Positions 24,121 through 59,013 of a stretch of 64,000 bases of DNA are shown in pieces (within the stretch, counting starts at the first letter, position 1; each line of letters starts with the position of its first letter). The notes under the pieces were generated by a model, which was not told the DNA's origin, ran no database searches, and worked only from the letters and a program-made list of their open reading frames with translations. The position numbers and the translations under genes are program-made. The DNA is from an uncultured Nitrososphaerota archaeon (GTDB taxonomy: Archaea > Thermoproteota > Nitrososphaeria > Nitrososphaerales > Gagatemarchaeaceae). The DNA lies in NCBI GenBank assembly GCA_963838925.1, contig CAWISW010000001.1, forward strand, positions 160,001 through 224,000, read 5' to 3'.

Positions 24121-24152
24121 GGCGCGGTGGGCGATTAAATATCGCCCGCGCC
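24121..24152 (+). promoter_or_regulatory. Pilin promoter: TATA box embedded in an inverted repeat
   Basis: GGCGCggtGGGCGAT-TAAAT-ATCGCCC-GCGCC; TATA about 21 nt before ATG 24163. Confidence 0.65.
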
Positions 24153-24162
24153 TTCAACGCCG

Positions 24163-24624
24163 ATGAAGTTCCAGCACGCAGCCAATAGGGGCAGGGCGGC
24201 GATCAGCCCGTTCCTCGCGACAGTGATCCTCGTGGTCATCACGCTCATGATCGGCGGGATACTCTACTCTTCGTTCAGGCAGCTCATAGTGGCGCAGGTG
24301 AAGAACCCGTCCGTCACGCTCCTGGACACGAACGTCTCCCCTGACGGCGAGACGATGACTCTGGACGTGAAGAACGACGGCAACGTCCCGGTCGCCCTGC
24401 AGGCGATAGACGTCAGCTACGGAGCGTCTTCTGACACGTTCAAGGAAAGCGGGACCGGCGCGAACATCACGCTGCTGTCGACTTCGTCGGGCAGCGCGAC
24501 CCTCCAGCCCGGCGACACGCTGACCGCGAAGGTCAAGACCAACTTCCAGGTTCCTGCGTTCGCGACGTTCACCGTCACGGTGGTCGGCGACCAGGTAGCG
24601 AAGGCGTTCAACATCCAGGCCTGA
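24163..24624 (+). CDS. Archaeal type IV pilin
   Basis: Class III signal RGRAA|ISPFLATVILVVIT. Confidence 0.88.
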   Translation: MKFQHAANRGRAAISPFLATVILVVITLMIGGILYSSFRQLIVAQVKNPSVTLLDTNVSPDGETMTLDVKNDGNVPVALQAIDVSYGASSDTFKESGTGANITLLSTSSGSATLQPGDTLTAKVKTNFQVPAFATFTVTVVGDQVAKAFNIQA

Positions 24625-24631
24625 GCGGCGG

Positions 24632-25270
24632 TTGAAGAGCCGCAAAGCGGTCGCCCAGTACGAGGCCACGGTGGTGCTCGTGGTGGTCTCGCTCTCGCTC
24701 GCCTCCGTGGTCTACTCCGGCCTCAGGAAAGAGTCCAGCCTCACTCCGCAGCCCGTCTTTGTGAGCGGCGAGACGCAGGTGGGAGGCAGCCCGGAGATAG
24801 TGCGGGTGGAGGTCAACGCATCCATGGTCACCGACGTCTCCTCGCTCAGCCTTGACGAGGCGAGCTCCGACGCCGGCGTAATAGGGTTCGACGGCTCTGC
24901 CTACTCCACCTCCCCAACGCTCTGCGCCGCTGGCAAGACGACGCTCTTCTCTGTCCTAGCGGAACAGTCGGGCGTCCTGCAGGTTTCGACCAACGGGCGG
25001 GCCTGGGTCGACGGTACTTGGGGAGGCTCGGTCAGCGTCTCGCCTGGATGGCAGGAGGTCATGATCCAGGGAGGGAGCTCGTGCGCGGTGACGCTCCCGG
25101 GCGGACAGACGGTCCCCGCGAACTGGACGCCGTCCTCTCCAATCGTCTCATCGATCCCGGCCATGGGCGGAACCTCGGGCACAAGCTTCGTCTTCTACGT
25201 CCCTTGCGACGGGAGCTCCCATCGTCTCCTCATCACGTCTAGCGGAGGGTTCGACGACGTCTCGATTTGA
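24632..25270 (+). CDS. Pilin-like protein
   Basis: Class III-like signal RKA|VAQYEATVVLVVV. Confidence 0.7.
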   Translation: MKSRKAVAQYEATVVLVVVSLSLASVVYSGLRKESSLTPQPVFVSGETQVGGSPEIVRVEVNASMVTDVSSLSLDEASSDAGVIGFDGSAYSTSPTLCAAGKTTLFSVLAEQSGVLQVSTNGRAWVDGTWGGSVSVSPGWQEVMIQGGSSCAVTLPGGQTVPANWTPSSPIVSSIPAMGGTSGTSFVFYVPCDGSSHRLLITSSGGFDDVSI

Positions 25271-25286
25271 GAAAAGGAGGGCGGGA

Positions 25287-25673
25287 GTGAGCGAGGTCGT
25301 CTCCTCGCTCGCGGTGCTCATGATCACCATCGCGCTCCTGGGCGGGATAGGGGCGGTCGCGCTGGGGTCGGTGAGGGGCTCCGGGAGCCTCCTTTCCTCG
25401 AGCGCCCAAGGAGCGGCGAGGGAGGACGGGCTGCTCCTGGCGCTCGTCTCGGTCCAGTCGAACTCGAGCGGCTCCTTCGCGTGGGTGTACGACTATGGGT
25501 GGGTGCAGGGGGCGCTCTCCGCCACGTACCTCAACGGCGGGCTCGTGAAGTGGTCCTCGAGCTGCGGCGGCGTGCTGCAACCCGGGAAGGTGTGCGCCGT
25601 CTCCGTCCCGCCCGGGTCGCACGGCGAGGTGAGTATGGTCTTTGGAACGAAGAGCCTGGACTACTCGGTTTAG
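25287..25673 (+). CDS. Pilin-like protein; true start probably upstream (about 25254-25257)
   Basis: In-frame upstream codons give EKRRAG|VSEVVSSLAVLMI. Confidence 0.75.
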   Translation: MSEVVSSLAVLMITIALLGGIGAVALGSVRGSGSLLSSSAQGAAREDGLLLALVSVQSNSSGSFAWVYDYGWVQGALSATYLNGGLVKWSSSCGGVLQPGKVCAVSVPPGSHGEVSMVFGTKSLDYSV

Positions 25674-25686
25674 CGGCCTCGCCAAG

Positions 25687-27216
25687 ATGGCGGGCGGGAG
25701 TGCGAGCAAGCCCCGTCTCGCCACCCCCGGCCTCCAGGCGATTCCCTTCGAGCCTCCGCACGGGGGCAGGCTCGTCGAGAACTACGTAGTGGAGTACGAG
25801 CTCCGCTCCTCCGGAGGGGCGCCCTACAGGTCGAGCTTCGCCGTCTACGTCTACGACGACCGCGGGAAAGGGCTCTATCTCGTCAAGGAACCGTACCTGA
25901 GGCCTGAGGTCGCCGGGACTGTGGCGGAGGCGATTTCCTCGCTCTCGACGTGGCTCGCGCCGTCGCCCGTCATCTCCGTCGACCCGCTCGGCTACCTCTT
26001 CGCCGAGCTGCGGAGGGCGGGATACATGGAGGGGCGCTCACCCGAGCAGCAGGAGGAGGCGAAGGCAGTGACCCACTACCTCATGCGCGAGATCCTGGGC
26101 TACTCGCTCGTCGACCCACTGCTGAGGGACCCGGAGCTCGAGGACGTCTCTTGCGAGGGGTCCGGCCGGCCGGTGAAGGTCTGGCACAAGCGCTACAACT
26201 CAAACGGGTGGCTGGAGAGCAACGTCGCCTTCCGCGAGCAGGACGAGCTCGACAGCGTGGTAGCCCGGCTCGTCCAGCGCTCCAACCGCTCCCTCTCAGT
26301 CTCCACACCGGTGGTCGACTGCGTCCTCCCCGAGGGGTACAGGCTCGCCGCGACGTGGGGGAAGGAGGTGACGTCGCTGGGGAGCTCCTTCAGCATCAGG
26401 AAGCTCCGCGCCACACCCTACACGGTCTCAGAGCTGATCCGGGCGGGGACCCTCGACTCGGGCCTCGCGGCCTACCTCTGGCTCCTCCTCGAGATGAAGG
26501 GGTTCGTGATCATCGCGGGCGTCACGGCCTCCGGAAAGACCACCCTGCTCAACGCGGTCGCGACCGTGTTGAACCCGAATTGGAAGGTGCTGTCGATCGA
26601 GGACACCCGCGAGATCACCCTCCCCCAGGGCGGGTGGAAGCCGCTTCACACGCGGTACGCCCACGGCAGCGTGGGCGGCGACGTCACCCTCTTCGACCTC
26701 GTGAAGCTCAGCCTTAGGGAGAGGCCTGACTTCGTGGTGCTTGGCGAGTCGAGGGGGGAGGAGGTGCAGGCGCTCTTCCAGACCGCGGCGACCGGGACGG
26801 GATGCCTCACAACGTTCCACGCCTCCAACCCGGAGGGCCTCACCACCAGGCTCACGCAGCCCCCGCTCTCAGTGGCGCAGAGCTCGCTTGGCCTGATTGA
26901 CGCGGTGGTGTTCATGGTGAGGGGGCAGGGAGGGCACAGGTTCGTCCAGAGCGTGGTCGAGCCCACGGGCGATGGTCCGAGCCGCACGTGGAACGCCGTC
27001 TTCACCCGAGAGGGAAGCGAGGGCGTGGAGCGCGAGGGCTCCTCGAGCCTGGGCAAGAGGGGGCAGGGCTTCGGGCACTCCGCGAAGAGAATCTCAGCGG
27101 AGCTGGACAGAAGGACTGCCTTCCTCGACGCCCTGGTTGGGAGGGGCGTGTCAGACTACGAGACTTTGGCCAAGGAGCTCAGGTCTTTCTATGCGAACTC
27201 GGCGTTGACCTTCTGA
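25687..27216 (+). CDS. Type II/IV secretion ATPase (ArlI/VirB11 family)
   Basis: Motifs GVTASGKTT, IEDTRE, RPDFVVLGESRG and TTFHA. Confidence 0.95.
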   Translation: MAGGSASKPRLATPGLQAIPFEPPHGGRLVENYVVEYELRSSGGAPYRSSFAVYVYDDRGKGLYLVKEPYLRPEVAGTVAEAISSLSTWLAPSPVISVDPLGYLFAELRRAGYMEGRSPEQQEEAKAVTHYLMREILGYSLVDPLLRDPELEDVSCEGSGRPVKVWHKRYNSNGWLESNVAFREQDELDSVVARLVQRSNRSLSVSTPVVDCVLPEGYRLAATWGKEVTSLGSSFSIRKLRATPYTVSELIRAGTLDSGLAAYLWLLLEMKGFVIIAGVTASGKTTLLNAVATVLNPNWKVLSIEDTREITLPQGGWKPLHTRYAHGSVGGDVTLFDLVKLSLRERPDFVVLGESRGEEVQALFQTAATGTGCLTTFHASNPEGLTTRLTQPPLSVAQSSLGLIDAVVFMVRGQGGHRFVQSVVEPTGDGPSRTWNAVFTREGSEGVEREGSSSLGKRGQGFGHSAKRISAELDRRTAFLDALVGRGVSDYETLAKELRSFYANSALTF

Positions 27217-27247
27217 AAGTCTTGACCTAACACGCGATTCTGTAGAG

Positions 27248-27619
27248 CTAGGCCTTGGCGCTCAGTTCCTTGAGCTGCGTCTCTACCACAGCGAGTCGCT
27301 GAGTCATGTCAAGACGCTTGTCGAGGTCGTCAATCTTCGACCCTAACCGCTTGTCGACTTCGTCGATCTTGGACTCGAGCCGCCTCTCGACTCCGTCGAT
27401 TTTCTCCCCAAGCGCTTCTATCCTCCCGGAAAGCTTCTCATCAAGACCAACAGTTTTCGCGCCAAGCCCATCCATCCGGGTCGAGAGTTTGTCGTCGAGC
27501 CCGCCTATCTTTGCGTCGAGTCCGTCGATTCTGGCGTGCACCACTTTGATCTCCCGCTTTAGCTCGCTTATCTGAGGCAAGAGCACCCTCCCCAACCAAC
27601 CAGGGACCTTCTCGGCCAT
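27248..27619 (-). CDS. Repetitive coiled-coil protein
   Basis: 7/11-residue repeats (RIDGLDAKIGGLDDKLST...); own TATA box at about 27648-27655. Confidence 0.75.
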   Translation of the reverse strand: MAEKVPGWLGRVLLPQISELKREIKVVHARIDGLDAKIGGLDDKLSTRMDGLGAKTVGLDEKLSGRIEALGEKIDGVERRLESKIDEVDKRLGSKIDDLDKRLDMTQRLAVVETQLKELSAKA

Positions 27620-27696
27620 CTCGGGTCGGTGGATTTTCGACCAGGTGATATTTAACCACCAACGAGAACCAATGCTCCGACCCTAAAACGAGTCGT

Positions 27697-29385
27697 CTAC
27701 GCCGGGTCTGCCCTGACCTTCTGGCTCTCGTAGATCTCCTTCACCCTTTCGAGGTTGTCGATGTCGGACGCCTGCTTGTCGTCCCGTATCCGCTTGATGC
27801 GCGGGAACCTCAGGGCGTAGCCGCTGTCGTGCCTCTCGCTCTTCTGGATGCTGTCGAAGGCGACCTCCAGAACTATCTCGGGCCTCACCGCCATCCTGTA
27901 CCCCACCTCGCCCACCGCGAGCCTCTTGATGCGGACCATCATCTCGTCGATCTCCTTGTCCGTGAGCCCCGAGTAGGCCTTGCCGATCACCTTCAGCTTA
28001 TCGCCGTCCCTGACCGCGAAGGTGTAGTCGCTGATCTTCCCAGCCCTCTTACCGTGCCCGAACTCTGCGGCGACCATCACCAGGTCGAGGGTGTCGAGCT
28101 CCTCCTTGAGCTTGGCCCAGTACCTCCCCCGCCTCCCAGGCGTGTAAGGGCTCTCCGGGTCCTTCAGGACGAGCCCCTCGTAGCCGAGCGACCTGCTCTC
28201 CCTAAAGAACGCCCCTATCTCCGACGCCGTCCTCACCGTCTTGGAGTCAGCCCTTCTGATCTCGGTCCCCTCGAGCAGCCCCCACAGGATGGCGCGCCTC
28301 GCGCGGAATGCCTCCCTGTGGACCGGGCTCCCGTCGAGGTAGAGTATGTCGAAGCAGAAGTAGCGTATAGGCGCGATCCTCTTCGACTCCTCGACGTCGG
28401 CCCGCCTGAGCCTCCGCTGGATGAGCTGGAAGGAGAGCGGGCCCTCGCCCTCCCTGAACGCGACTATCTCCCCGTCTAGGACGACGTCGTGCGGGATCTT
28501 CTCCGCGGCCGCCACGACCTCGGGGAAGCTCGCGGTCATCTCCTCCAGCCTGCGGGAGAATATCTTGACCTGCCCGCCGAGCTTGTGCACCTGCGCGCGG
28601 ACGCCGTCGTACTTGTACTCCGCGAAGAGCTCCCTGCCCTCGAAGTAGTCCGAGATCTCTTCGGCCGAGGACATCGGCTCGGCGAGCATAAAGTTAGTGG
28701 GGCGCATCGGCTCGATCCTCACCTCAGCCAGCCTGCCGCCCTTGGCCTCGCGGGCCAGGAGCCCGACGTCCCCCAGCATGAGGTAGGCCTCCTTGACCCT
28801 CTCCCTCCCGATGTCCTTCCCGAAGGCCTCCGCAACGGCCTCTTCGACGAGGCCCTCGACGAGCCCTATCCTCATCTCCTTGCTCAGGATCTTGACGATG
28901 TACTTCGCCTCCAGCTCGCTCTCGCCCCTGTGAAGGAGGGACTTCACGAGCTCCTTCTTGAGCCCGGCCGACCCCTTGCCCTGGGCTTCCGTGATCTTCT
29001 CGAAGATCGAGGCGACGTCGAGGATGGCGAGCGCGTCCTCCGCCCCTTCGAAGAGCGTCGCCTCCCTCCTCCGGCCGATGAACTCCGCGACCGACTCGCT
29101 GAGGTCGCCGTGCTTTAGGTAGCTCTTGCTCAGCTCCTCCTGTGTCACGCCGGTGAGGTCGCGAAGCACCCCGATCAGCGCGGAGTACCCCACCTGCGTC
29201 TCGTCGACGCTCCCCTTTCGCGTCGACCTACCAACGGCGAAGCGCGCCGCGTACTCCACCTCGTCCTCCCCCTTCAAGCGCCCGAGCAACCCCGCCAGGA
29301 TGGCGACCTTCTCGTTCTTGCCCTTGGCGAGCCGCACCTTCTCCAGCGTCTTCGCGAGCTCGCGGAACGGGGTGCCCAAATTCAA
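27697..29385 (-). CDS. lig: ATP-dependent DNA ligase
   Basis: Motifs EYKYDGVR, EGLVLK and LRFPRIKRIRDDK. Confidence 0.97.
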   Translation of the reverse strand: MNLGTPFRELAKTLEKVRLAKGKNEKVAILAGLLGRLKGEDEVEYAARFAVGRSTRKGSVDETQVGYSALIGVLRDLTGVTQEELSKSYLKHGDLSESVAEFIGRRREATLFEGAEDALAILDVASIFEKITEAQGKGSAGLKKELVKSLLHRGESELEAKYIVKILSKEMRIGLVEGLVEEAVAEAFGKDIGRERVKEAYLMLGDVGLLAREAKGGRLAEVRIEPMRPTNFMLAEPMSSAEEISDYFEGRELFAEYKYDGVRAQVHKLGGQVKIFSRRLEEMTASFPEVVAAAEKIPHDVVLDGEIVAFREGEGPLSFQLIQRRLRRADVEESKRIAPIRYFCFDILYLDGSPVHREAFRARRAILWGLLEGTEIRRADSKTVRTASEIGAFFRESRSLGYEGLVLKDPESPYTPGRRGRYWAKLKEELDTLDLVMVAAEFGHGKRAGKISDYTFAVRDGDKLKVIGKAYSGLTDKEIDEMMVRIKRLAVGEVGYRMAVRPEIVLEVAFDSIQKSERHDSGYALRFPRIKRIRDDKQASDIDNLERVKEIYESQKVRADPA

Positions 29386-29442
29386 AGGTCGCGAAGACCC
29401 GGAACATATGGGCGCTTATATGGAAATGCTAATTCTAGCCCT

Positions 29443-30690
29443 GTGACCCGGGTCCTAAAAGGAATCAAACAGGCATTCCGACCCACCGTTCAAACTCTCC
29501 GGCTCATGGAGGACTTTCGGCAGATGGTCAATGACTGCATACGAATCGGGTTAGAATTTGAAAGAACATCAGCGGACCATCAGACTCCCTCGATGAAAAA
29601 ACTCTCGTCTCTTTCGTACAGGCAAATTCGGAGCCGGTATGGCGGATACTCCAGTTACGCCTCATGCGCCTCCTCAATGGCAGCCGGAATCCTGGCCTCT
29701 CGAAAGAAGTCAATCAGGAGAGGATTCCCAACCTCAAGTCCCTATGTCAAGAGGCCTCTGCTCGTTTCGTGTTTCGGCTTCAAGGTGGAGGGTCAAGCTC
29801 TCACCTTTCATATTGGTTCCGACAAATTTGAATCGATACCTTTGAACCCGTATACGATTTCAGCGGTATCCGACCCATCAATAAAGATCCGTTCCTTCAC
29901 CTTGACACTCGAGTCTCTTTGCCTTACGATTGCCAAGGAGAGCAGCGAAGTCCCCCCCGTAGATTTCACCGATTTCGTCGGAATCGATCGAAACCTTCGC
30001 AACGTGACGGTCGGGAATCATAGGAGGGCGATTCGATACGAGATGGGAACTGTCGTCGAGATCATGGAAAACACACGAGCGATAATTCGCTCCTTCAGAC
30101 GAAACGATGCGAGGATAGGACGACAAATTCGCTCCAAGTTCGGCAGGCGGAGGACCAACCGGGTGAAGCAGTTCTTGCACCTCATCTCAAGAAGGATTGT
30201 CGAATCAGCCAGCGCGCGAAGAGAGGCGATCGTCTTCGAGGATTTGAGAGGAATCAGAGGACTCTACTCGAAGAGGAACCCTCGAGGGAGACGATACAGG
30301 GCCGAAATGAATTCGTGGCCCTACGGCGAACTGAAGAGGCAGATAGAGTACAAGGCTGCGTGGGCGGGTATTCCGACCTTTACTCTTTCGAGAATGGAGA
30401 CGAGAGGCACGACAGTGGATTGTCCGCGATGCGGGGAGAGACTCCAAGCGGCAAGACGCGGTGATTGCAATCACTATCGGCAGTTGTGGTGTCGTGTCTG
30501 TGGGCGGTGGAGAGACCGTGATCTGGTTGCGGTCATGAATATCTCCCAGAGGGGGCGGTTGAGGTTCGACCGCTCAAAGGAGCAAGGCGAGGCAAGTGAA
30601 GCAATGAAGCGGAATGCGGAACTCGAAGGAGAGCCGCTAATCCTCCGAGTCGATGCCTCGAAACTGCGTCTCCCCCGGGAGACTATGTAG
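29443..30690 (+). mobile_element. tnpB: TnpB (IS200/IS605-family RNA-guided nuclease), intact, no tnpA
   Basis: RuvC motifs GIDRN / VFEDL / DRDLVA; Zn ribbon CPRC...CRVC; lower GC. Confidence 0.9.
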
Positions 30691-31189
30691 AACCGAGCTG
30701 CTGCGCCATGAGGTAGGCCGACTCCCCGTCCTTGTAGTATCCCTGCATCGTGCCGGTGACCTGGAAGTTGAGCTTCCTGTAGAGCTTCACGGCGTCGTCG
30801 TTGGTGACCCTCACCTCCAGGAAGACCTCCTTGCACCCTCCTTTCCTCATCTCGTCCATCGCCCGCTGGATGAGGGTGGTGCCCACGCCCTTCCCCCTGT
30901 GAGCCTCCATGGTGGCTATGGAGATTATGTGCCCCTTCCTCGCGAGCCCGAACCGCTTCATCACCGAGAGGCCGTACTCTATCCTGCACATGATGTAGCT
31001 CACGACCTCGCCCCCTAGCTCGGCGACGATGAACGTGTTCGGGAACTCGTTGAGAATCTCGTAGTAGAAGTAGTCCGAGTAGTGCTCCGGGAGGGTCGCC
31101 CCGTTGACGCTGATGACGCTCGGCACGTCCGACGCCTCGGCGTATCGAATGGTATAGTCCCCCGACCTGCCGAGGATAGACTTCTGCAT
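30683..31189 (-). CDS. N-terminal acetyltransferase (Ard1/RimI family)
   Basis: LPEHYS, GHIISIA, RGKGVG, LEVRVTN and YYKDGE. Confidence 0.93.
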   Translation of the reverse strand: MQKSILGRSGDYTIRYAEASDVPSVISVNGATLPEHYSDYFYYEILNEFPNTFIVAELGGEVVSYIMCRIEYGLSVMKRFGLARKGHIISIATMEAHRGKGVGTTLIQRAMDEMRKGGCKEVFLEVRVTNDDAVKLYRKLNFQVTGTMQGYYKDGESAYLMAQQLGST

Positions 31190-31288
31190 CCGCGTCTTCG
31201 AGCGGGGTCGGCCCGCTAAATAAACGTGGCCGATTTGCCGTTCACTAACGTTTAATGCCGTTGGTTTCCCGAGACTTCTGGAGCACCA

Positions 31289-32440
31289 TTGTCGGCGATC
31301 AACACCGATGTCGACTCCGCGGTGAGGTCGCTCTTCTCGGTGAAAGACTACTTCGTGGCCGAGGAGGGGGCCGCGGAGTACAAGGTGGTCTTCGACCAGG
31401 CGTCGGGCGCGAACTTCCTGAAGCTCCTCGAGACGCTGAAGAAGCCCGACTACTCGGCGCAGCTCTACGGCGACGCGGAGAACGCCACATTGGTGGTCAC
31501 CAAGAACCCCCCGCCTCCGCCCCCGGTGCTCAAGCTCAGGCTCAGCGCGCCGGCCTTTCTCTTCCTCCTGACGATTCTCTCCGTCCTGGTCACGGCCTAC
31601 GTCGTCGCTGTCATCTTCCCGAAGGTCGCGCCCGGGGGGTCCTCCGTCGAGATGGGCGTCGGCTTCGTGGGGGCGCTCGTGGCGGTCTTCGGCGTCCGCT
31701 ATGCCGCACAGAGATACGCGGCGAGGCGAGGGAGCTTCACCTTCCTCTCCTACTACCTGCCGAACATCCCGATCTTCATCGCCCTCCCGACCATGTACTT
31801 CCTTCCCACCTTCGGGTCGGTCAGCTTTCCGGGGACCCCTCCCGCTAACAGGAACAAGCTCTTCGACTTTTACCTCATCGGCGCGCTGGCCATGGTCGTT
31901 GTCGCGCTCGCCGTCTCCTTCCTTGGCGCCGGCACTTCGGTCATCCTGACGCAGGCCCAGTACGCCTCGATCTCCGCTGGCAACCAGACCGCCACGATAC
32001 AGACCAACCCGAGCCTCATCCAGGCGGGGGTGCTGTCGCTGTCACAGAGCCTGGGGCTGCTGGGGCAGGTGCCGACGGGCGGGACGCTCATCTTCTCACC
32101 CGTCGAGATAGCCGCATGGCTGGGACTGCTCCTTGCTTTCTTCAACCTGATGCCGGCCGCGCTCTTCGACGGCGGGAGGATGGCGCGCCTCGCGCTGGGG
32201 GACAGATGGAGCAGGGCGACCACCATCGTCGTGGGGCTGTTCCTCCTGGCGACCGACATGCCAGACTACTGGGTCGTCTTCCTCCTGGTCTTCCTGATGG
32301 CGGCCTTCCCCGTACAGGGGGAGACCCTCGACTCGATCTCCGGCCTGTCAAAGTCAAGGAGGGCAGTCTTCGTCGTCGCTATCGTGGTCGGGCTCCTGTG
32401 CGTCCCCGTCCCGCAGAGCTTCGTTACCTTCCCGCTCTAG
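31289..32440 (+). CDS. Site-2 protease (M50) homolog lacking HExxH
   Basis: PTFG and NLMPAALFDGG present; the HExxH position reads RYAAQ. Confidence 0.8.
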   Translation: MSAINTDVDSAVRSLFSVKDYFVAEEGAAEYKVVFDQASGANFLKLLETLKKPDYSAQLYGDAENATLVVTKNPPPPPPVLKLRLSAPAFLFLLTILSVLVTAYVVAVIFPKVAPGGSSVEMGVGFVGALVAVFGVRYAAQRYAARRGSFTFLSYYLPNIPIFIALPTMYFLPTFGSVSFPGTPPANRNKLFDFYLIGALAMVVVALAVSFLGAGTSVILTQAQYASISAGNQTATIQTNPSLIQAGVLSLSQSLGLLGQVPTGGTLIFSPVEIAAWLGLLLAFFNLMPAALFDGGRMARLALGDRWSRATTIVVGLFLLATDMPDYWVVFLLVFLMAAFPVQGETLDSISGLSKSRRAVFVVAIVVGLLCVPVPQSFVTFPL

Positions 32441-33540: not shown

Positions 33541-33643
33541 GACGCGCTTCTATCGCGTGAGCCACGCTCGCCGCGTCTATCAAGCTTTAGTCCCCGGCGA
33601 GGGTTCAGCCACCTTTTAGTATCGCCTCCGGAGACCTCGCTCC

Positions 33644-34270: not shown

Positions 34271-34370
34271 GGCACTAGTGGGCCGTAGGGTCCTTCTCCT
34301 CTAGAAGGAGATGAGGCGCGCAAGTTATATTCGCTGGGTGAGATGGGTTGAAAGCGGGGAGCCATAGCCT

Positions 34371-35268: not shown

Positions 35269-35359
35269 GGTCTTTCTTGGGGCGTCCTCCTGAGATTGTT
35301 AAGGATTCCCGATTTCTAGCCGCAAGTCTTTAGAAGGGTAGGGGGCTGCTCGCGCTTCC

Positions 35360-47789: not shown

Positions 47790-47801
47790 AATTGGTGATT
47801 T

Positions 47802-49430: not shown

Positions 49431-50702
49431 ACTGCCCGCTAGCGCAGCAGGCTTCCTGCTTCAATGAGCAAATATGCTTGTCCTGTGGTGCCTGACAAGT
49501 AGGGATCCGCCCTCAGCACGGGCTCGTTCCAAACCCTTAGCGAGAATATTCCTCGCCGCGTTCACGTCTCTGTCGATTGCAAGACCGCAGTGTTCGCAAT
49601 TGTGCACTCGTTGACTGAGTGTCTTGTGAGCCATTTCCCCGCAACTAGAACATTTCTGCGAAGTGCCGCTTGGGTCGACGAGAATGACCCGTCCTCCACG
49701 CCTTTCCGCCTTTGAAGCGGTCAAGTCGCGGAGCATTCCCCAACCGGACTCCATTATTGCTCTAGCGAGATTAGGATTCCTAACCATTCGGCGAATTTTC
49801 AGATTCTCGAAAACAATCGTGTGGTTGTTTCTCGTCAGTTCATCCGACAGTTTCTCAAGGAAGTCTTTCCTTTGCCGTCGCAAGGTTCTCCATGCCTTGG
49901 AGAGAAGAGTCCTCGTCTTCTCTCGGTTTCTCGAACCGCGATTCTTGCGAGATAAGCGACGTTGCAAGTGAAGGATCCTGTTTGCCGAAGTCTGAAGACA
50001 AGAAGGTTGTTGAACCGAGGTTCCGTTGCTCAGAGTAGCTAGGTTCGAGATTCCGAGGTCGACGCCTATTGCTCCCTCGCCGCACGGCCTTCTGATTGGG
50101 GATTCTTTCACGAGAACCGCAATAAACCACTGGTCGATGTCCCGAATGATGGTTGCCCTCTTGAGGCTGCCCCCGATAGCGCAACACGGTCTGACTTTGA
50201 TTCTGCCGATCTTGCTCAGAATGACATGATTGTGCTCCAGCTTGAAACCCATCTGTGGGTAGGTGAAAGAGTTGTAACGCGCTTTCCTCTTGAATTTGGG
50301 GTGTTTGATTAGGCCACAATGGAATGACATGAACACTCTCCAGCCTCCAAACGACATCCTGCAAGACCTGAGCGTATACTTGTTTGAGGAACTTGTTGCT
50401 CTCCTTACGGATTGGAAGAGATCTCTTTTGCTCGAAGTAACTAGAGTGGGTGGTTATTCTGTCTGAAAGTAAGTCGTTGTAGAGGCGGCGACATGTTTCA
50501 ACGGTCTCCTCAAGGGTTCTCTGTTGCACTTCGTTCGGGTATAGCCGAAACATGAAGGTTAGCGTAGCGACTCATTCTCCGCCGAATCTAGTTGGGGAGC
50601 ATAGGATGCAAACGAATGCGGGTCGACGGTTCTTGTTGTCTTTAGTAGAGGAGTCGTGTTGTTAGAACTCGAATTAGGATATAAGCGCCCATCCGCGCCA
50701 CG
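49427..50702 (-). mobile_element. tnpA-less IS605-family (IS1341-like) element
   Basis: Right end ...GAAGC-hairpin-AGTTCAA on the minus strand; lower GC; bounded by 12-bp repeats. Confidence 0.8.
49461..50553 (-). pseudogene. tnpB: Frameshifted TnpB
   Basis: FRLYP N-terminus in one frame; GVDLG, VFENL, CSSC..CEHC and DRDVN in another; shift near 50335. Confidence 0.88.
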
Positions 50703-50714
50703 GCAGCTGCCGTT
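50703..50714 (+). repeat. 12-bp direct repeat GCAGCTGCCGTT, copy 2
   Basis: Followed by CTAG; overlaps the 14-bp palindrome ACGGCAGCTGCCGT (50700-50713). Confidence 0.85.
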
Positions 50715-51525: not shown

Positions 51526-51547
51526 CCAGGCGCTGACAGAGGAGACG

Positions 51548-53374
51548 TCATGCCTCCTGCTCCTCTTCCTCCCCTTCCTGTGGCTGGCCGGGCCTCGCCG
51601 CGTAGTAGTACTGGCCCTTCTCCTTCTGCTCCCTGTCGCGCTTGCTCTCAGGCTTGTTCACCCTGGGCCTGCCGCTCTTCACGTCCCTGCGGTACGTCAG
51701 CCCTATCTCCCCGAGGAACGTGTTCATCCCCTCCTCCTTCCCGAGAGGAGCGGTCGCCGACCCGCTCCGACCCGGCTCCCCCGTGAAGACCATCATCCTG
51801 TCCGAGATGAGGTCTAGAAGCTGGATGTCGTGGTCGATTATCAGCGCGCTCTTCCCCCTCGCCTTCACCAGCCTTCCCATCGCCTTGGCGATCACGAACC
51901 TGTCCTCGACGTCCACGAAGGCGGACGGCTCGTCCAGTGCGTAGAGGTCGGCCTGGGCGGCGAACGTCGAGACTATGGCCAGCTTCTGGAGCTCCCCGCC
52001 GCTGAGGTCCGCCACGTTCCTGGGGAGGAGCTTCTCGATCTTCAGGGGGCCCGCGAGATACGCCTGGAGGTTGGCGTCGTCGAACCCCTTCCCAACCTTC
52101 TCGCCGATGAACTCGAGGACCGTCCCTGGGTAGTCCGCCTTCAGGTACTGGGGCTTCAGCGCGATCTTCGCGCCCACGCTCACCTCCCCGGAGTCCGGCT
52201 TCTCCTCTCCAGCGAGCATCCGGAGGAACGTCGTCTTTCCGAGCGCGTTCGCCCCGATGGCCCCGAAGATGGTCCCCGCAGTCATCTGGCCGGCGCTCAC
52301 CTCGAGCGAGAATCCGGGGAACGCCTTCTTCAGCGAGCCGTAGCTAGCGATGACCTCCTCGGATTGCTGGGTCTCGACGCTTGTCGTGACGTCGAAGGTG
52401 ACGCTCTTGTCCCTGAAGCGCGTGTTCTCAAGCGGGAGGAATCCGTCGAGGAGCGCGTTGATGCCGCTCCGGGAAGGGTAGAGCGACGAGACGATGCCGT
52501 AGACGCCCGGCTCCCCGTAGACTATCTGGACGTAGTCGGACGCATAGTCGAGGAACGTGATGTCGTGCTCGACGAGGAGGACGTACCTGCCCTTCTCGGC
52601 GATCGACCGGATGAGCTTGGAGACAGCCAGCCTCTGGTAGACGTCGTTGTAAGACGAGGGCTCGTCAAAGAGGTACATGTCTGCCTCCTTGAGCGAGGCG
52701 ACCGCCACCGCCACCCTCTGGAGCTCCCCGCCGCTCAGCTCGCCCACGTTCTTCCCGAGCGCCTCCCCAAGGCCGAGCGTCTCGACGACGCTCTCCATCT
52801 CGCCCGTCTCGTTCATCTTGGAGAGGAGGGACGAGACGTCCTTCTTCCACACCTCTGGGAGCTTGTAGACGGCCTGGGGCTTGAGCGAGATCTTCACCTC
52901 GCCGCTCTCGACCCTCTCGAAGTGCTCCTTGAGCTCCTTCCCGCTGAGGTAGTCGAGTATCAGCCTCCACGAGGCCGTGTGCTCGTAGTCGCCCAGGTTG
53001 GGGATGAGCTGGCCCGACAGGATCTGGAGGGCGGTGGACTTGCCAGTACCGTTCCTCCCCACGAGCCCCACCACGTGCCCCTTCCTCGGGGTCGGGAGGC
53101 GATAGAGGCGGAATGTGTTCACGCCGTACTGGTGTATCTTGTCCTCTTGCAGCTCCTCGCTCAGGTTCAGGATGGTTATCGCCTCGAACGGGCATACCTT
53201 CACGCATATCCCGCAGCCTATGCAGAGCTGCTCCGAGATGACCGCCAGCTTCTCCTCGCCGAGGACTATGCACTCGTCTCCGTTGATATTGACGGGGCAG
53301 TCCTTGATGCACTCTAGCCCGCACTTGTCAGAGTGACAAAGATTCTCGTCGAGACCGGCTACCCTGTGAACCAT
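51548..53374 (-). CDS. Ribosome recycling ATPase ABCE1/Rli1
   Basis: N-terminal 2x[4Fe-4S] Cys motifs; two ABC domains; TYRRD..SGRPRVNK. Confidence 0.97.
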   Translation of the reverse strand: MVHRVAGLDENLCHSDKCGLECIKDCPVNINGDECIVLGEEKLAVISEQLCIGCGICVKVCPFEAITILNLSEELQEDKIHQYGVNTFRLYRLPTPRKGHVVGLVGRNGTGKSTALQILSGQLIPNLGDYEHTASWRLILDYLSGKELKEHFERVESGEVKISLKPQAVYKLPEVWKKDVSSLLSKMNETGEMESVVETLGLGEALGKNVGELSGGELQRVAVAVASLKEADMYLFDEPSSYNDVYQRLAVSKLIRSIAEKGRYVLLVEHDITFLDYASDYVQIVYGEPGVYGIVSSLYPSRSGINALLDGFLPLENTRFRDKSVTFDVTTSVETQQSEEVIASYGSLKKAFPGFSLEVSAGQMTAGTIFGAIGANALGKTTFLRMLAGEEKPDSGEVSVGAKIALKPQYLKADYPGTVLEFIGEKVGKGFDDANLQAYLAGPLKIEKLLPRNVADLSGGELQKLAIVSTFAAQADLYALDEPSAFVDVEDRFVIAKAMGRLVKARGKSALIIDHDIQLLDLISDRMMVFTGEPGRSGSATAPLGKEEGMNTFLGEIGLTYRRDVKSGRPRVNKPESKRDREQKEKGQYYYAARPGQPQEGEEEEQEA

Positions 53375-53395
53375 CGGCGAAGAAACAGGACCGCG

Positions 53396-54007
53396 CTACG
53401 GGCTGTCTTTCAATCTTGCGGCGATCGGGCAGAAGCTGTGGATCTTTGGGTCGGTCCCCAGCCCGAGCGACTCGTATGAGTACTTCTTCCGCGTCTCCCT
53501 CCAGACCGCCTCCTCGGATGGCTCGCCGTTGAGGTGCATCATCTCGTGCTCCTCTATTATCGGGCGCAGCCTGCACGCGGAGCACATCTGCTTGACGAAC
53601 GCCAGGCCGTGCGTGGTGGAGTTGTAGAGGATCACGACGCCCGTTCCCCCGATGAGCCAGACCATCGCGAGCGCCGCGTATATGCCGAAAGCCGAGTTGA
53701 GAAGGTACGATATGGCCCCCGTCGCGCAGATTAGCGACGCTCCGAGCAGCTTTCCCTCAGCGCCGCGAGGGAACGAGAAGCCTATCGCCCTCCTCGGCAG
53801 CGAGGAGACGAGAAGCGGGGGGAGCAGGAGCCTCAGGAGCTTCGATAGAGGTAGGACGACTATTCCGTCGCTCGACGCTACGGGCGCAGGAATCCGAAAG
53901 GCGTTCGCGAGGTAGGATGGGGCGCCGGTCTCACTCTTGGCGCTGTGGCTGCCAGCAACCCCCTTCGGCCCCTTGCCTTCCGTGTTCTCCATGGAGTCCT
54001 CTGTCAT
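53396..54007 (-). CDS. Hypothetical membrane protein with CxxC and HExxH
   Basis: TM hairpin, then CSAC...EHEMMH. Confidence 0.65.
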   Translation of the reverse strand: MTEDSMENTEGKGPKGVAGSHSAKSETGAPSYLANAFRIPAPVASSDGIVVLPLSKLLRLLLPPLLVSSLPRRAIGFSFPRGAEGKLLGASLICATGAISYLLNSAFGIYAALAMVWLIGGTGVVILYNSTTHGLAFVKQMCSACRLRPIIEEHEMMHLNGEPSEEAVWRETRKKYSYESLGLGTDPKIHSFCPIAARLKDSP

Positions 54008-54025
54008 TTTACGCTCACCGTCGAA

Positions 54026-54868
54026 CTATTTATGCGTGCTAGTGAAGGTCTCGGAAATCTTCCTGAGCCTGGAAGTGATTTTCGACTCGAATCTCTTGAA
54101 CTCCTGCGTCCGGTTCGGAGTGAAGTCCAGGGAGAGAGGCGAGCTGGAGATCGCCTTTAGCTTGTGAACCGCGTAAGCGTCGGAGTCCTTCCTGAAACTC
54201 GGCATCCTCGAGCCCCAGAGCCAGTAGTAAGGCCGCCCGCGCGGGTCCTCGCGCTCCACCACGGAGTCCCTCCACTTCCTCGTCTCAACTGAAGTTATCT
54301 TGACCCGGGTGCGCCAGCTCGTCCCCCAGGGGAAGTTGACGTTGAGCATGTCCGCTCCCTTCGGCATCCCGTGCTCGAGAACCTCCTGCAGGATCTCTGC
54401 GGCTATCTTCGCCGGGATCGCAAAGCGCGGGTCCTTCCTCCCGTGGACTATCGTCTTGCCCTGAGGGATCTCCATCGAGAACGCGATTGCCGGGATCCCC
54501 AGGAGGGCTGCAGAGAGGGCAGCCGCTACCGTTCCGGATGCGAATATGTCTTGGATTGTAAGGTTCTCGCCCTTGTTGATCCCCGAGACCACCGCGTCCG
54601 GCCTTCTCGGGAGGATGCTGTGTATCCCGATCATCGTCGAGTCGGCCGGGCTCCCAGAGATGGCGTAGCACACCCGGTGCCCCACGTGCACCTTGGTCAC
54701 GCGGAGAGGCCTGTGGAACGTGAGGCTCATGCCTGCCGCGCTCTGCTCTCCCTCGGGAGCGATTATCATGACGCTCCCGAGCGTCGAAGCAGCGTCAGCG
54801 AGCGCGATTATACCCGGGCTGGTCACCCCGTCGTCGTTGGTGACCATGATGAGAAGGTCTTCGTCCAA
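54026..54868 (-). CDS. surE: 5'/3'-nucleotidase SurE
   Basis: VTNDDG, SGIN.G.N, SGTV and DPRGRPYYW. Confidence 0.97.
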   Translation of the reverse strand: MDEDLLIMVTNDDGVTSPGIIALADAASTLGSVMIIAPEGEQSAAGMSLTFHRPLRVTKVHVGHRVCYAISGSPADSTMIGIHSILPRRPDAVVSGINKGENLTIQDIFASGTVAAALSAALLGIPAIAFSMEIPQGKTIVHGRKDPRFAIPAKIAAEILQEVLEHGMPKGADMLNVNFPWGTSWRTRVKITSVETRKWRDSVVEREDPRGRPYYWLWGSRMPSFRKDSDAYAVHKLKAISSSPLSLDFTPNRTQEFKRFESKITSRLRKISETFTSTHK

Positions 54869-55007
54869 TCGTGGGCCCTCTACCTCTCAGACGAGATAAG
54901 GTGTGCGCTCCTCCGGTGGGAACGACAAGCGACTTTTCGCAAATGGAAACTGCGATATCGTCTAAAAGGAATCCACAAGGCTAATAAGGGATACAGGGGA
55001 GTCAGCG

Positions 55008-57203
55008 TTGTCTGAAAGTGATCGAGGAATGAGTCAGCAGCAAGTACAGCTCAAGGTATTGGAGGCGTACACGAGGGACGTCGGTCGAGGAGTGGCCAGG
55101 ATTGACTACGACGCGATGGACGCGCTCGACGCCTCCACTGGCGACGTCATCGAAATCAGAGGGAAGAGGCGCACAGTCGCAAAGTGCTTACCTCTCTACC
55201 CTTCAGACGAAGGCAGGGGGATAGTCAGGATCGACGGCCTCATCCGCAACAACGCCGGAGTGGCCATCGGAGACATGGTCATAGTCCGCAAGGTCAAGGC
55301 GCCGCCGGCGGAGAAGGTCGTGGTCGCCCCGCTCGAGGCGGTGCCGCCCATCGACGAGAGGTACCTTGCTGACACGCTCGAGAGCGTCCCTGTCACAAAG
55401 GGCGACAACGTAATGATACCATACTTCGGAGGAAGGCTGACGTTCCAGGTGATGGGCGTCACCCCCGCGGCTGAGGCTGCGCTCATCACCCAGAGGACCG
55501 TATTCGTCATCTCCGAGAAGGGAGAGGCCCTCCGCGGAGTCCCGCAGGTAACCTACGAGGACATCGGCGGCCTAAAGGACGAGATCCAAAAGGTCCGCGA
55601 GATGATCGAGCTGCCCCTCCGCCACCCTGAGATATTCGAGAAGCTCGGAGTCGAGGCGCCCAAGGGAGTGCTCCTGTACGGGCCTCCCGGCACCGGAAAG
55701 ACCCTCCTCGCAAAGGCGGTCGCGACGGAGAGCAACGCCCACTTCATCCCGATCTCCGGGCCCGAGATCATGAGCAAGTTCTACGGAGAGTCCGAGGCGA
55801 GGCTCCGCGAGATCTTCAAGGAGGCCAAGGAGAAGGCGCCGACAATCATATTCATCGACGAGATAGACTCGATCGCCCCCAAGAGGGAGGAGGTCACAGG
55901 AGAGGTGGAGCGCAGGGTCGTCAGCCAGCTCCTCTCGCTCATGGACGGCCTCGAGGCCAGGGGCAAGGTCATCGTCATCGCGGCCACCAACAGGCCCAAC
56001 GCCATCGACCCGGCCCTGAGGAGGCCAGGACGCTTCGACCGCGAGATAGAGATCAAGGTCCCAGACAAGAAGGGCAGGTACGAGATCCTCCAGATCCATA
56101 CGAGGCACATGCCTCTCACGCCCGACGTGGACCTCGAGAAGCTGGCGGCAGTCACCCACGGCTTCGTGGGCGCCGACGCGGAGTACCTCTGCAAGGAGGC
56201 CGCGATGAAGACCCTCCGCAGGATGCTCCCAGAGCTGAAGCTCGAGGAGGAGAGGCTCAGCCCGGAGATCCTTGACAAGCTCATAGTGACCATGGCGGAC
56301 TTCGAGGGCGCGCTGAAGGACGTGATGCCCTCGGCGATGCGCGAGGTCTACCTCGAGACGCCCGACGTAAAGTGGGCGGACCTCGGAGGGCTCGACGGCG
56401 TCAAGAGGGAGCTCCAGGAGGCGGTCGAATGGCCCCTGAAGTTCTCCGACCTTTACGCCGCCATAGGCTACAACATGCCAAAGGGCATCCTCCTCTACGG
56501 CGCGTCGGGCACGGGCAAGACCATGCTCGCAAAGGCAGTCGCGACCGAGAGCGAGGCCAACTTCATCAGCGTGAGGGGCCCGGAGCTCCTCAGCAAGTGG
56601 GTGGGCGAGTCCGAGCGCGGCGTGAGGGAGGTCTTCAGGAGGGCGCGCCAGGCCGCACCTTGCATCATCTTCTTCGACGAGATCGACGCCCTCGCGCCGA
56701 CCAGAGGCATGGGAGGCGACAGCATGGTCACCGAGAGGGTGGTAAGCCAGCTCCTCACCGAGCTCGACGGCATCCAGCAGCTGAACGGCGTGGTCGTCTT
56801 GGCTGCAACCAACAGGATAGACATGGTCGACCCGGCGCTCGTCAGGCCAGGCAGGTTCGACAAGGTCATCCCCATACCGATGCCCGACAAGGAGTCCAGG
56901 GAGAAGATACTCGAGATCAACATGGAGGGCAAGCAGATGGCGCCGGAGGTTAGGAAGGACATGAAGGCGCTCGTCGACATGACCGAAGGGTTCAGCGGAG
57001 CCGACGTCGCGGCCCTCGTCAACACAGCGGTCTCCATGGTGCTCCAAGAGTACGTCGCGAAGTATCCAAAGCCAGAGGACGCGAAGAAGCACCTGGACGA
57101 GGCCATCGTGACCTTCGAGCACTTCAAGGACGCGGTGAAGAAGGTGCGCTCCTCAAGGGAGAGCAAGCCGATGGAGAAGGTCGCGGTCCCCTACTACCGC
57201 TAG
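55008..57203 (+). CDS. Cdc48/VCP AAA+ ATPase
   Basis: N-domain; two AAA modules; C-terminal PYYR. Confidence 0.98.
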
Positions 57204-57276
57204 TCGCGGGGTAGGGCAACAATCTCTTTTAATCGTCGCAAGCTCCGGGTACGCAACGCAGTAGTGTAAACTCGAA

Positions 57277-58902
57277 TTGTCTTCGCAGGATGCCAAGGTG
57301 ATAGGGAGGGGAACGTGGCTCGACAGGGTCGCGAGCCAGCTCCTCGAGAGGGAAAGGTCGCTCGGCAGGAGCACATCCCTCCTGAGGGTCGAGAGCGGTC
57401 TTGGCGCCTCGGGCATCCCGCACATCGGGAGCGTGGGCGACGCGATAAGGAGCTACGGCATCAAGCTCGCGCTCGAGTCGCTGGGATACAAATCGGAGCT
57501 CATAGCATACTCAGACGACCTAGACGGCCTCAGGAAGGTCCCGGCGGGCTTCCCCGACTCACTGAAGGAGTACATCGCGCAGCCGGTCACTCGAATCCCT
57601 GACCCCTTCGGCTGCCACGATTCCTATGGCGCCCACATGGGGAGCCTCCTGAAAGAAGCGCTGGACGACCTGGACATCCCCTACACGTTCAAGAGCGGAG
57701 CCGAGGTCTACAAGAGCGGCCTCCTCAACCCTCAGATCAAGAAGATTCTCGACAGCGCGGCCTTGGTGGGCCGGATGATCAAGGAGCTGACGGGCCAGGA
57801 GAAGTACGAGACCGTCCTCCCATACACGCCCATCTGCCAGAACTGCGGGCGCCTCTACACCACCATCGTCTCCTCCTACGACCCGGTCGCGCTGACCGTC
57901 CACTACAAGTGCGACAGCGCGGAGGTCGGTCACAGCATCGTCAAGGGCTGCGGCTTCGAGGGAGACAGGAAGGTGACCGAGGGAGAGGGAAAGCTGATCT
58001 GGAAGAGCGAGTTCGCCGCGAGGTGGGCTGCGCTCGACATCAGGTTCGAGGCCTACGGCAAGGACATCGCGGAGTCGGTGAAGATAAACGACTGGATAAG
58101 CGAGAACGTCCTCGCGCACCCGCCGCCGTACCACGCGAGGTACGAGATGTTCGAGGACAAGAGCGGGAGGAAGGTGAGCAAGTCCGTGGGGAACGTCATC
58201 ACGATACACGACTGGCTGACCTACGCCTCCCCGGAGAGCGTCAGGCTCCTCATGTTCAAGCGCATCGTCGGGGCGAGGAGCATCTCGGTCGACGACGTCC
58301 CCGTCTACATGGACGAGTTCGACGAGCTCGAGGAGAACTACTTCTCGAAGAAGAAGGACCCGAACGCGATGAAGGACGCGAGGCTACGCGGGCTCTACGA
58401 GTACACTATGCTCCTCCGAATGCCGGGAAAGCCCAGCTTCCACGTCCCGTATCGCCTACTCGCGGAGCTATCGAACGCGGCCCCTGAGGGCTCGCTGGAG
58501 GAGTACGTCGCGAAGCGGCTGACGACCTACGGGATGCTGAAGGAGGCCCCGAGCGCGCAGCTCCAGACCAGGATAAGATGGGCCGCGGCATGGGCCAAGC
58601 GCGGAGGGGCTGGCTCGCTAGACGTGGCCGTCCCCGAGCTCTCGGAGAAGCAGGCCAAGGCCGTGATGGAGTTCTCCACCGCAATAAGGGAGGCGAAGAC
58701 CGCCGACGACGTCCAGGGGGCGGCCTTCAACGCCATCAGGGCGAACGGCCTGCAAGCGGGCGAGTTCTTCCCCGCGGTGTACGGCCTGCTGCTGGGTGCC
58801 GAGAAGGGGCCGAGGCTCGGCCCCTACGTGATGGACTCTGGCCCCCAGACGGTCGCGGAGAAGCTCGAAAAACTCGCCTCTTCCGCTGGAAGACATAACT
58901 AA
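57277..58902 (+). CDS. lysS: Lysine--tRNA ligase, class I
   Basis: SGIPHIG, KVSKS and GPRLG. Confidence 0.96.
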   Translation: MSSQDAKVIGRGTWLDRVASQLLERERSLGRSTSLLRVESGLGASGIPHIGSVGDAIRSYGIKLALESLGYKSELIAYSDDLDGLRKVPAGFPDSLKEYIAQPVTRIPDPFGCHDSYGAHMGSLLKEALDDLDIPYTFKSGAEVYKSGLLNPQIKKILDSAALVGRMIKELTGQEKYETVLPYTPICQNCGRLYTTIVSSYDPVALTVHYKCDSAEVGHSIVKGCGFEGDRKVTEGEGKLIWKSEFAARWAALDIRFEAYGKDIAESVKINDWISENVLAHPPPYHARYEMFEDKSGRKVSKSVGNVITIHDWLTYASPESVRLLMFKRIVGARSISVDDVPVYMDEFDELEENYFSKKKDPNAMKDARLRGLYEYTMLLRMPGKPSFHVPYRLLAELSNAAPEGSLEEYVAKRLTTYGMLKEAPSAQLQTRIRWAAAWAKRGGAGSLDVAVPELSEKQAKAVMEFSTAIREAKTADDVQGAAFNAIRANGLQAGEFFPAVYGLLLGAEKGPRLGPYVMDSGPQTVAEKLEKLASSAGRHN

Positions 58903-59013
58903 AGCCTTCTAACCGTTGAATTTCTTGCTACTCTGCGGATACCCAACCAAAGACTTGCCTCAAAGCATGTGGGCGAATTAATATGAAATTGGGCTCTCCA
59001 TCTTCGAATCCCC

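Follow-up and report, generated by a model that had tools for sequence, protein, structure and literature searches.

A TGGGCG word next to the TATA box as a probable core-promoter module of pilin and mobile nuclease genes in a high-GC Nitrososphaeria-like genus

Why should a pilin gene and the genes of mobile nucleases start behind the same few letters? The question is raised by a stretch of 64,000 nucleotides (referred to below as the window; C1:160001-224000) from an uncultured archaeon of the Nitrososphaerota, whose genome (the own genome) consists of three contigs, C1 to C3, with 1.84 Mb in total at 61% G+C and 87% completeness. An earlier note on this DNA had described the word TGGGCG directly ahead of a TATA box at four promoters, belonging to a type IV pilin-like gene, two tnpB genes (tnpB1 and tnpB2) and a LAGLIDADG gene, and had read it as an element at the position of the BRE, the recognition element of transcription factor B (TFB). 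That description stood up: the word is placed non-randomly, keeps a fixed spacing and orientation relative to the TATA box, is conserved between genomes, differs from the BRE of housekeeping genes and is carried by a set of genes that can be named. The core of the earlier interpretation, that selfish nucleases have adopted an element at this position, is supported as well, and the observation reaches well beyond the window. Overall, TGGGCG-N-TTAAAT/TTATAT is probably a functional core-promoter module, marking a small and distinct class of promoters in this high-GC Nitrososphaeria-like genus.

Placement of the word and its footprint at the pilin gene

The four sequences and their coordinates agree letter for letter with the genome. 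At the pilin gene the site (GGCGCGGTGGGCGATTAAATAT, 24121-24142, plus strand) contains TGGGCG-A-TTAAATAT (24128..24142), with the TATA start 28 nt 5' of the ATG at 24163. The tnpB1 site (CATATGGGCGCTTATATGGAAAT, 29405-29427, plus strand) reads TGGGCG-C-TTATATGG (29409..29423) and its TATA box starts 27 nt 5' of the GTG at 29443. The 14-mer ATGGGCGCTTATAT is identical at tnpB1 (29408-29421, plus strand) and at tnpB2 (50679..50692, minus strand), where it is found 131 nt 5' of the start of the open reading frame (ORF) at 50553. The LAGLIDADG gene is preceded by a variant, TGGGCG-AA-TTAATATG (58970..58986, within the site CATGTGGGCGAATTAATATGAAAT at 58966-58989, plus strand), 35 nt 5' of the TTG at 59014; this site falls outside the strict pattern TGGGCG-N1-2-TTAWAT because its box, behind a two-base spacer, reads TTAATA.

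The strict pattern has three matches in the window and none in each of 100 dinucleotide-preserving shuffles; the whole of the own genome holds five. When TGGGCG is required 0-2 nt before TTWAWW, eight occurrences are observed in the own genome against 1.25 expected (Poisson P = 4.8e-5). The distance from the hexamer to T[AT]5 is 0, 1 and 2 nt in 1, 9 and 4 cases, respectively, and every larger distance up to 29 nt has 0-2 cases. Flat profiles result for six control hexamers: the reverse complement of TGGGCG, the word read backwards and four others rich in G+C. The peak at 1-2 nt, in a single orientation, corresponds to the BRE position.

For comparison we used 41 genomes: the own genome, 22 of the same genus, two of the same family and 16 of the same order. 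Of these 41, 24 contain the strict pattern, with 60 matches in total against three for the reversed pattern. Counting the genus alone, with the own genome among its members, 53 strict matches compare with one reversed match; outside it the numbers are seven and two.

Site anatomy was read from 59 of the 60 strict sites, the 60th being too close to a contig end. The base preceding the hexamer is A (51%) or G (36%) in most cases, and the spacer consists of one base in 52 sites and of two bases in seven, the spacer base being C (48%), A (30%) or G (19%). The sites also have a base in common downstream of the box: 76% of the 52 one-base-spacer sites have a T at TATA+18 (against 23% of 142 general promoters), and this T is present in the pilin, tnpB and MetW promoters as well as in several unrelated members. 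Between the TATA start and the start codon lie 27-28 nt in each of the 11 pilin genes, and 26-31 nt are counted for most tnpB and other members; a start codon at 27-28 nt fits leaderless or near-leaderless mRNAs, which we predict. Besides tnpB2 with its 131 nt, longer leaders are seen for a tnpB2 paralog at C1:359660 (~53 nt) and for a KaiC gene (143 nt).

The general promoters of the genome follow another rule, which agrees with the earlier note, where the element was not seen at the oppA, cdc48, tRNA or cupredoxin promoters: the tRNA and 16S rRNA promoters are without it, and most genes have an A-rich or GCAAG-type BRE. Genes were called with a home-made caller based on codon usage, which misses foreign genes such as tnpB and takes the longest ORFs as starts, so that the general-promoter logos are approximate. 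Hexamers enriched upstream of genes in the own genome are TTAAAT, TAAATA, TTTATA and TTATAT. The general TATA boxes lie ~30-35 nt 5' of the starts of the longest ORFs; A is over-represented from -6 to -4, and G makes up 28-35% at -3 and -2. Among the words over-represented before TATA-like boxes (GACAAA, ACAAAA, TGCAAG) TGGGCG is the sole G+C-rich one near the top. None of the 22 tRNA promoters of the own genome (tRNAs called by ARAGORN) contains TGGGCG, A-rich BREs being present instead, and the 16S rRNA promoter reads GTGCAAGG-TTTATAT, again without the word. Of 384 native promoter TATA boxes, eight are preceded by a hexamer with at least five of the six TGGGCG positions where 2.6 are expected, a number that was reached in 0 of 200 column shuffles.

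The best single evidence for selection on the hexamer at a host gene, independent of any transposon, is the footprint at the pilin promoter. Aligning the stretch from the T2SSF stop codon to the pilin ATG in nine genomes reveals one invariant block, the 14-mer TGGGCGATTAAATA, located 27-28 nt 5' of the start codon; the flanks, 5-8 bases ahead of it and ~20 bases behind it, diverge freely. The persistence of this block in an otherwise diverged promoter argues that the motif is more than a transposon end. In two more distant genomes the site reads TTGGCG-A-TTAAATAT and GGGGCG-A-TTAAATAT, each 27 nt before the ATG.

The gene itself (24163..24624, plus strand) encodes 153 aa with a class III signal-peptide-like N-terminus. 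Its match to Pilin_N is weak (16.2 bits, under the 25.2-bit cut-off), and similarly weak matches (15-17 bits, below the same cut-off) are obtained for 7 of the 11 pilin orthologs. The flanking genes, a T2SSF-like gene (22495-24120; 30.6 bits) and a T2SSE ATPase (25642-27216; 100 bits), both exceed the Pfam cut-offs, and it is by the weak Pilin_N matches together with this operon context that the gene is taken for a putative pilin.

In the own genome the pilin motif is part of a near-perfect inverted repeat, GGCGCGG(T)GGGCGAT-TAAAT-ATCGCCCGCGCC (24121-24152). We considered the palindrome GGCGCGGTGGGCGAT/ATCGCCCGCGCC as a required feature of the pilin promoter and rejected it, the outer arms being unconserved in the orthologs. 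The inner arm ATCGCC/ATCGCT recurs in four of the nine aligned genomes (own included), and the outer arm is absent elsewhere.

Genes that carry the element

All 60 strict sites were fetched and the frames downstream of them were read. tnpB genes follow 20 of the sites (11 full length, eight frameshifted or truncated and one at a contig end); nine of the 11 full-length genes were confirmed with Pfam, and seven broken copies in relatives as well as the copy at the contig end were recognised by tblastn. Pilin orthologs follow nine sites and the conserved leader of a KaiC-like gene three. LAGLIDADG-like genes, genes of the metallo-beta-lactamase (MBL) fold (with a two-base spacer) and MetW methyltransferases account for two sites each, a Fic gene and a Zn-ribbon ORF (a frameshifted ortholog of own C2:432906-433544) for one each, and ORFs without a Pfam match for eight. 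The remaining 12 sites have no convincing gene downstream; seven of these are the sites outside the genus. The combination of pilin and selfish nuclease genes, noticed earlier in the window, is thus seen across many related genomes.

The genome scan that the earlier note had proposed, for TGGGCG-N1-2-TTAWAT, reveals a clear preference for tnpB: the strict motif precedes three of the eight tnpB loci of the own genome against two of ~1760 other genes (Fisher P = 6e-7). A fourth tnpB locus has TGGGCG-CG-TTTATA, and the other four have AAGGGCG, TAGGCG, TGTGCG or AGGGTG ahead of a TATA-like box, so all eight carry, in front of such a box, a hexamer like TGGGCG in at least four of six positions. Within the window, tnpB1 (29443..30690, plus strand) is an intact frame of 415 aa (Cas12f1-like_TNB, 48.6 bits). 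tnpB2 (49461..50553, minus strand) is spread over two overlapping frames (49855-50553 and 49461-50357) and would be either frameshifted or a pseudogene; its upstream (N-terminal) frame matches HTH_OrfB_IS605 (33.9 bits), its C-terminal frame OrfB_IS605 and Cas12f1-like_TNB (84.3 and 81.8 bits). Both genes score above the Pfam gathering threshold for TnpB. A Y1 transposase (PF01797) had no match in the own genome, which is 87% complete.

The motif occurs upstream of TnpBs of the HTH_OrfB type (tnpB2 and loci L041 and L049) as well as of the tnpB1 type, that is, in at least two distant clades; the aligned tnpB1-type proteins with the motif are 32-54% identical to tnpB1. In other lineages the picture changes. 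Among 79 tnpB1-type loci from named genomes the sequences before the TATA box are lineage-specific and exact TGGGCG is found once: high-GC Nitrososphaeria-like metagenome-assembled genomes have degenerate G-rich words (GTGGGTCG, GTTGGTCA, CATGGCTGC, TAGGCCC), low-GC ammonia oxidisers ATAACC-N6-TTAT, and Bathyarchaeota CCTCTCTGAC-TTATAC. Words at tnpB in other lineages include TTGGTCC. That relatives of tnpB1 elsewhere carry other words fits mobile genes using an element specific to the host lineage.

In one tnpB subfamily (three copies in the own genome and two in one other genome of the genus) the motif is found inside a longer conserved left end, GGCTCTGGTAACTCTTCGG-N4-6-TGGGCG. Three own tnpB genes of this subfamily (C1:349427, C1:361389 and C2:423569) have upstream another TATA-like box (ATATAAAAG, TATATAGGA, TTATAGTAG), ~22-25 nt 5' of the conserved block GGCTCTGGTAAC of the left end, and this box may be an extra start point inside that end.

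tnpB1 is an insertion polymorphism (29376-30700; loci L137, L138 and L139). In two relatives (G012 and G003) the site is empty, a DNA ligase gene and a GNAT gene (30683-31189 in the window) being ~70 nt apart, whereas relative G009 shares the insertion with the same promoter arrangement. The empty sites place the right junction at ~30700. In them a TATAT is also found, 39-40 nt away from the ligase codons just like the window's TATA box, and the box at 29416 could be either ancestral ligase-promoter DNA or transposon DNA. Genomes with the insertion start the ligase with TTGAAT, the others with ATGAAA. In the own genome the GNAT gene no longer has its native stop codon, and its frame reads three codons into the tnpB1 element.

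In the own genome the class includes two genes of the RecA superfamily, one KaiC-like and one Rad51-like, both above the Pfam cut-offs, and a further member, read by eye and with no Pfam match above threshold, may be a PD-(D/E)xK-like nuclease. The TGGGCG promoter of the KaiC-like gene (C2:601770-601920, minus strand) is followed by a leader of ~143 nt, parts of which, such as GGTCATGCTCTGTAACC, recur in two relatives (loci L015 and L039); this leader may represent a small RNA or else a 5' untranslated region with a regulatory role. A 440-aa MBL-fold gene (C1:241725-243047, minus strand) has TGGGCCAC-TTAAAT upstream and its orthologs in two relatives (loci L005 and L035) have TGGGCGAC-TTAAAT; with its spacer of two bases, this promoter seems to belong to the class as a conserved host member.

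The LAGLIDADG gene of the window (59014..59895, plus strand) encodes 293 aa. An AF2 model of the protein (pLDDT 87.3, 15 homologs) was compared by Foldseek, the top matches being PI-PfuI and I-DmoI (E ~1e-7, prob 1.0, TMt ~0.7); WhiA is also matched, over the full length. In the alignment of 15 sequences the GDGS and FD motifs are invariant. Sequence profiles gave less: Pfam returns LAGLIDADG_3 at E=0.15 and 12.8 bits (under the 22.5-bit cut-off), and a profile search against PDB sequences returned no LAGLIDADG match. According to the model, the protein has the two-domain LAGLIDADG fold with a C-terminal helical domain resembling a helix-turn-helix (HTH), and it is a predicted endonuclease. 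A close ortholog is present in one of the 22 same-genus genomes (60% identity), a sporadic distribution that fits a mobile gene. That ortholog (genome G006) has TGGGCGCTTAAAT 39 nt 5' of its start. A second LAGLIDADG-like gene of the own genome (C3, 256 aa) is preceded by TGGGCG-C-TTTAAT, and G-rich variants before the TATA box are frequent among the distant paralogs of other genomes (GTGGGCGG-TTATTA, GTGGGCCG-TTATTA, AGTGGCCG-TTAAAT and GTCGGCGG-TTAAAT).

A tRNA of 91 nt (59976..60066, plus strand; Rfam RF00005, 40.8 bits; missed by ARAGORN) begins 80 nt past the LAGLIDADG gene. Its promoter is TTTTTAATA, without TGGGCG, and by its length it could contain an intron. At locus L178 another LAGLIDADG-like ORF follows an apparent tRNA 5' half, and in the own genome a LAGLIDADG fragment (C1:284837-285233) is close to a tRNA to which ARAGORN assigns an anticodon of four bases.

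Three further sites in the window resemble the class. The earlier note had listed a weaker copy near 9948; the letters are there (TGGGCG at 9948-9953, followed directly by TATTTG), but we rejected the site (9948..9959, plus strand) as a member given its poor TATA box and the lack of an ORF at 27-28 nt. The AbrB-like ORF at 10058 has a separate TTAAAT at ~10028. A near-match, TTGGTGG-TTAAAT (27650..27662, minus strand), stands 36 nt 5' of the ATG of a 123-aa coiled-coil gene (27248-27619) and is possibly a degenerate class member. At 60111-60129 (plus strand), CTGGGCCCGCTTAAATTA is a further G-rich word preceding a consensus TTAAAT; no ORF starts at promoter distance from it, the next called gene beginning at 60303.

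Reading of the element and rival explanations

How would such a module work? Its parts would be, in order, a purine, TGGGCG at the BRE position, a spacer of one base (rarely two), a consensus TATA box, the conserved T at TATA+18 and the start codon at 27-28 nt, giving a leaderless or near-leaderless mRNA. The host would use it for its major pilin gene and for a small number of others. The tnpB genes of several clades would have it within the left end, and it would also be carried by free-standing LAGLIDADG genes, so wherever the mobile nucleases are inserted in this host they would bring along a compact promoter that functions there. The motif presumably drives transcription. As the element consists of one non-palindromic hexamer whose distance from the TATA box is fixed, we infer that its reader is the basal machinery (TFB or a factor positioning TFB) and not a classical dimeric regulator; the rigid TATA spacing and the class-specific base near -10 likewise look more like a core-promoter signature than like a classical operator.

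Several points weigh against this module. Counted in the own genome alone, the word is modestly enriched (8 against 1.25), and this excess fails correction for 4096 hexamers. The 60 sites were picked by the pattern itself and therefore tell which genes are carriers, not how large a share of a gene family carries the word; many are non-independent, being orthologs or transposon copies related to one another. The exact hexamer may be one point in a G-rich continuum, the closest tnpB1 relatives having degenerate words, and the conserved left end of one subfamily means that part of the tnpB signal is descent. Nor do the TFBs single out a reader. The own genome has four TFB genes (C3:299717-300658, C1:347066-348013, C3:462264-463121 and C2:424289-425233) and one gene for the TATA-binding protein (TBP); all four TFBs share the recognition helix TEVT[LIV]RNR, and the most divergent paralog is 61-95% identical across the whole order, with no TFB specific to the genus.

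Two of the four TFB genes adjoin tnpB loci of the same subfamily (C1:347066-349403 and C2:422355-425233), one of them downstream on the same strand and one divergent.

Among the alternatives, a separate regulator survives best, unlikely as we consider it: a repressor that occupies the BRE, or an activator that brings in TFB, would bind TGGGCG and govern a true regulon, perhaps the stress or DNA-exchange regulon of the earlier note, which had thought of DNA damage or cell contact and of nucleases firing when pili mediate DNA exchange. A class that is small and conserved on the pilin gene, and that in the own genome includes RecA-superfamily members, would suit such a regulon, and since all four TFBs have the identical helix, a different reader is conceivable. 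Sulfolobus offers a precedent in a non-palindromic hexanucleotide that is essential to UV-inducible promoters, the one of the ups pili among them (PMC5817253, in the part of the text available). On the other side, a single non-palindromic word of 6 bp with a rigid one-base spacing is more typical of a core element, and the class also holds MetW, Fic and secreted proteins, members without an evident link to DNA exchange. The WhiA-like LAGLIDADG-HTH protein was considered as the trans-acting factor and discarded: with a close ortholog in just one of the 22 same-genus genomes it is too sporadic, and as the motif is present at every pilin gene it is unlikely to be the reader.

Quite unlikely, in our judgement, is a more elaborate version of the module, in which TGGGCG, the TATA box and the -10 T would form a second BRE-coded class that controls the pili and is read by a dedicated set of general factors, with either one of the four TFBs or a TFB-recruiting factor as the reader. 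RNA-guided TnpB nucleases and LAGLIDADG endonucleases would have joined this class, tying their expression to that of the pili and possibly to DNA exchange between cells.

Very unlikely is also the possibility that the motif is a relic of transposon ends, inherited with the left end of IS200/IS605 tnpB elements as a TnpA site or element promoter, in which case the matches at the pilin and LAGLIDADG genes would have arisen by chance or be old solo ends. It might be argued for on the grounds that a third of the sites (20 of 60) precede tnpB, that one subfamily embeds the motif in a longer conserved left end, and that GGCGCGG is found just upstream of both the own tnpB2 and the pilin site. However, the pilin 14-mer is kept in nine genomes at 27-28 nt from the ATG while its flanks, GGCGCGG included, are unconserved; the motif lies at promoter distance of MBL, KaiC, MetW, Fic and LAGLIDADG genes; it is shared by TnpB clades whose N-termini are unrelated; and no Y1 transposase was found in the 87% complete genome. 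Finally, it is hardly credible that there is nothing special to the word, i.e. that it co-occurs with a common TATA box by chance or composition (61% G+C) or represents the strongest ordinary BRE: the failed multiple-test correction in the single genome and the fairly common G at -3 and -2 of general promoters speak for this, but the 60 matches against three for the reversed control in 41 genomes, the control hexamers without a spacing peak, the conserved pilin footprint and the A-rich or GCAAG BREs of tRNA and rRNA promoters speak against it.

The module that we favour is a compact and testable candidate: a G-rich word of 6 bp that occupies the BRE position and leaves a clean phylogenetic footprint at the pilin gene. 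It would show how transposase-less tnpB and homing-endonuclease-like genes get expressed, namely by carrying the promoter word of the host lineage, as we predict. This bears on the persistence of TnpB/omega-RNA systems, and on the use of such promoters to express tools in uncultured archaeal groups.

Relation to known systems

To our knowledge, promoter classes defined by sequence are rare outside haloarchaea and Sulfolobus, and our literature searches found none for Nitrososphaeria. A search combining TGGGCG, archaea and promoter gave, among the matches listed, only unrelated primer-type ones, and our searches on archaeal TnpB promoters and on Thaumarchaeota promoters yielded no account of it.

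With the left ends of IS200/IS605 elements the motif has in common its place upstream of tnpB and, in one subfamily, within a conserved left end. It differs in being present at conserved host genes as well, with no TnpA found in the 87% complete genome, and in that TnpB relatives of the same type carry other words elsewhere.

The eukaryotic TFIIB recognition element, BREu, has the consensus SSRCGCC. Like TGGGCG it is a G/C-rich word placed immediately upstream of TATA, and GGGCGC fits SSRCGC if shifted by one base; the difference is this register, off by one base, with the spacer base being C in 48% of the sites. By eye, V283 and R286 of human TFIIB, which we take to be the residues contacting BREu, would correspond to the V and the first R of TEVT.RNR.

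Archaea with several TFB paralogs are suspected of sorting their promoters into classes. The promoter classes of haloarchaeal TFB and TBP paralogs and of Sulfolobus TFB3 (PMC2396416, PMC6101591 and PMC6101594, in the parts available) resemble the present case in that several TFB paralogs are found here too, which would permit classes set by general factors; the difference is that the motif could not be linked to any one paralog, the recognition helices being identical here and all paralog types order-wide.

[quoted passage not shown] The letters differ. Described BREs are A- or purine-rich, with A at -3 and A/G at -6 in Sulfolobus (available part of PMC5817253) and an A-rich BRE in Thermococcus (available part of PMC5316973), whereas TGGGCG has G at -6 to -4 and C at -3. 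It is also confined to a small set of genes, while the tRNA, rRNA and bulk promoters of the same genome follow the A-rich rule.

The A(N)TTTC element of Sulfolobus, at -44 to -39, comes nearer. It is indispensable to promoters induced by UV, those of the ups pili and of tfb3 among them, with proof from reporter genes and UV induction and with a reader given as unknown (PMC5817253, to the extent of the text available). Both are non-palindromic elements of 6 bp, found at a pilus operon and at other promoters and conserved between species. They differ in sequence and in place, A(N)TTTC being located upstream of the BRE whereas TGGGCG occupies the BRE position; function is proven for the former and predicted for the TGGGCG class, and the available part of PMC5817253 does not report mobile nuclease genes as carriers. 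Taken as an analogy, the UV hexanucleotide of Sulfolobus is the closest documented counterpart of the TGGGCG module.

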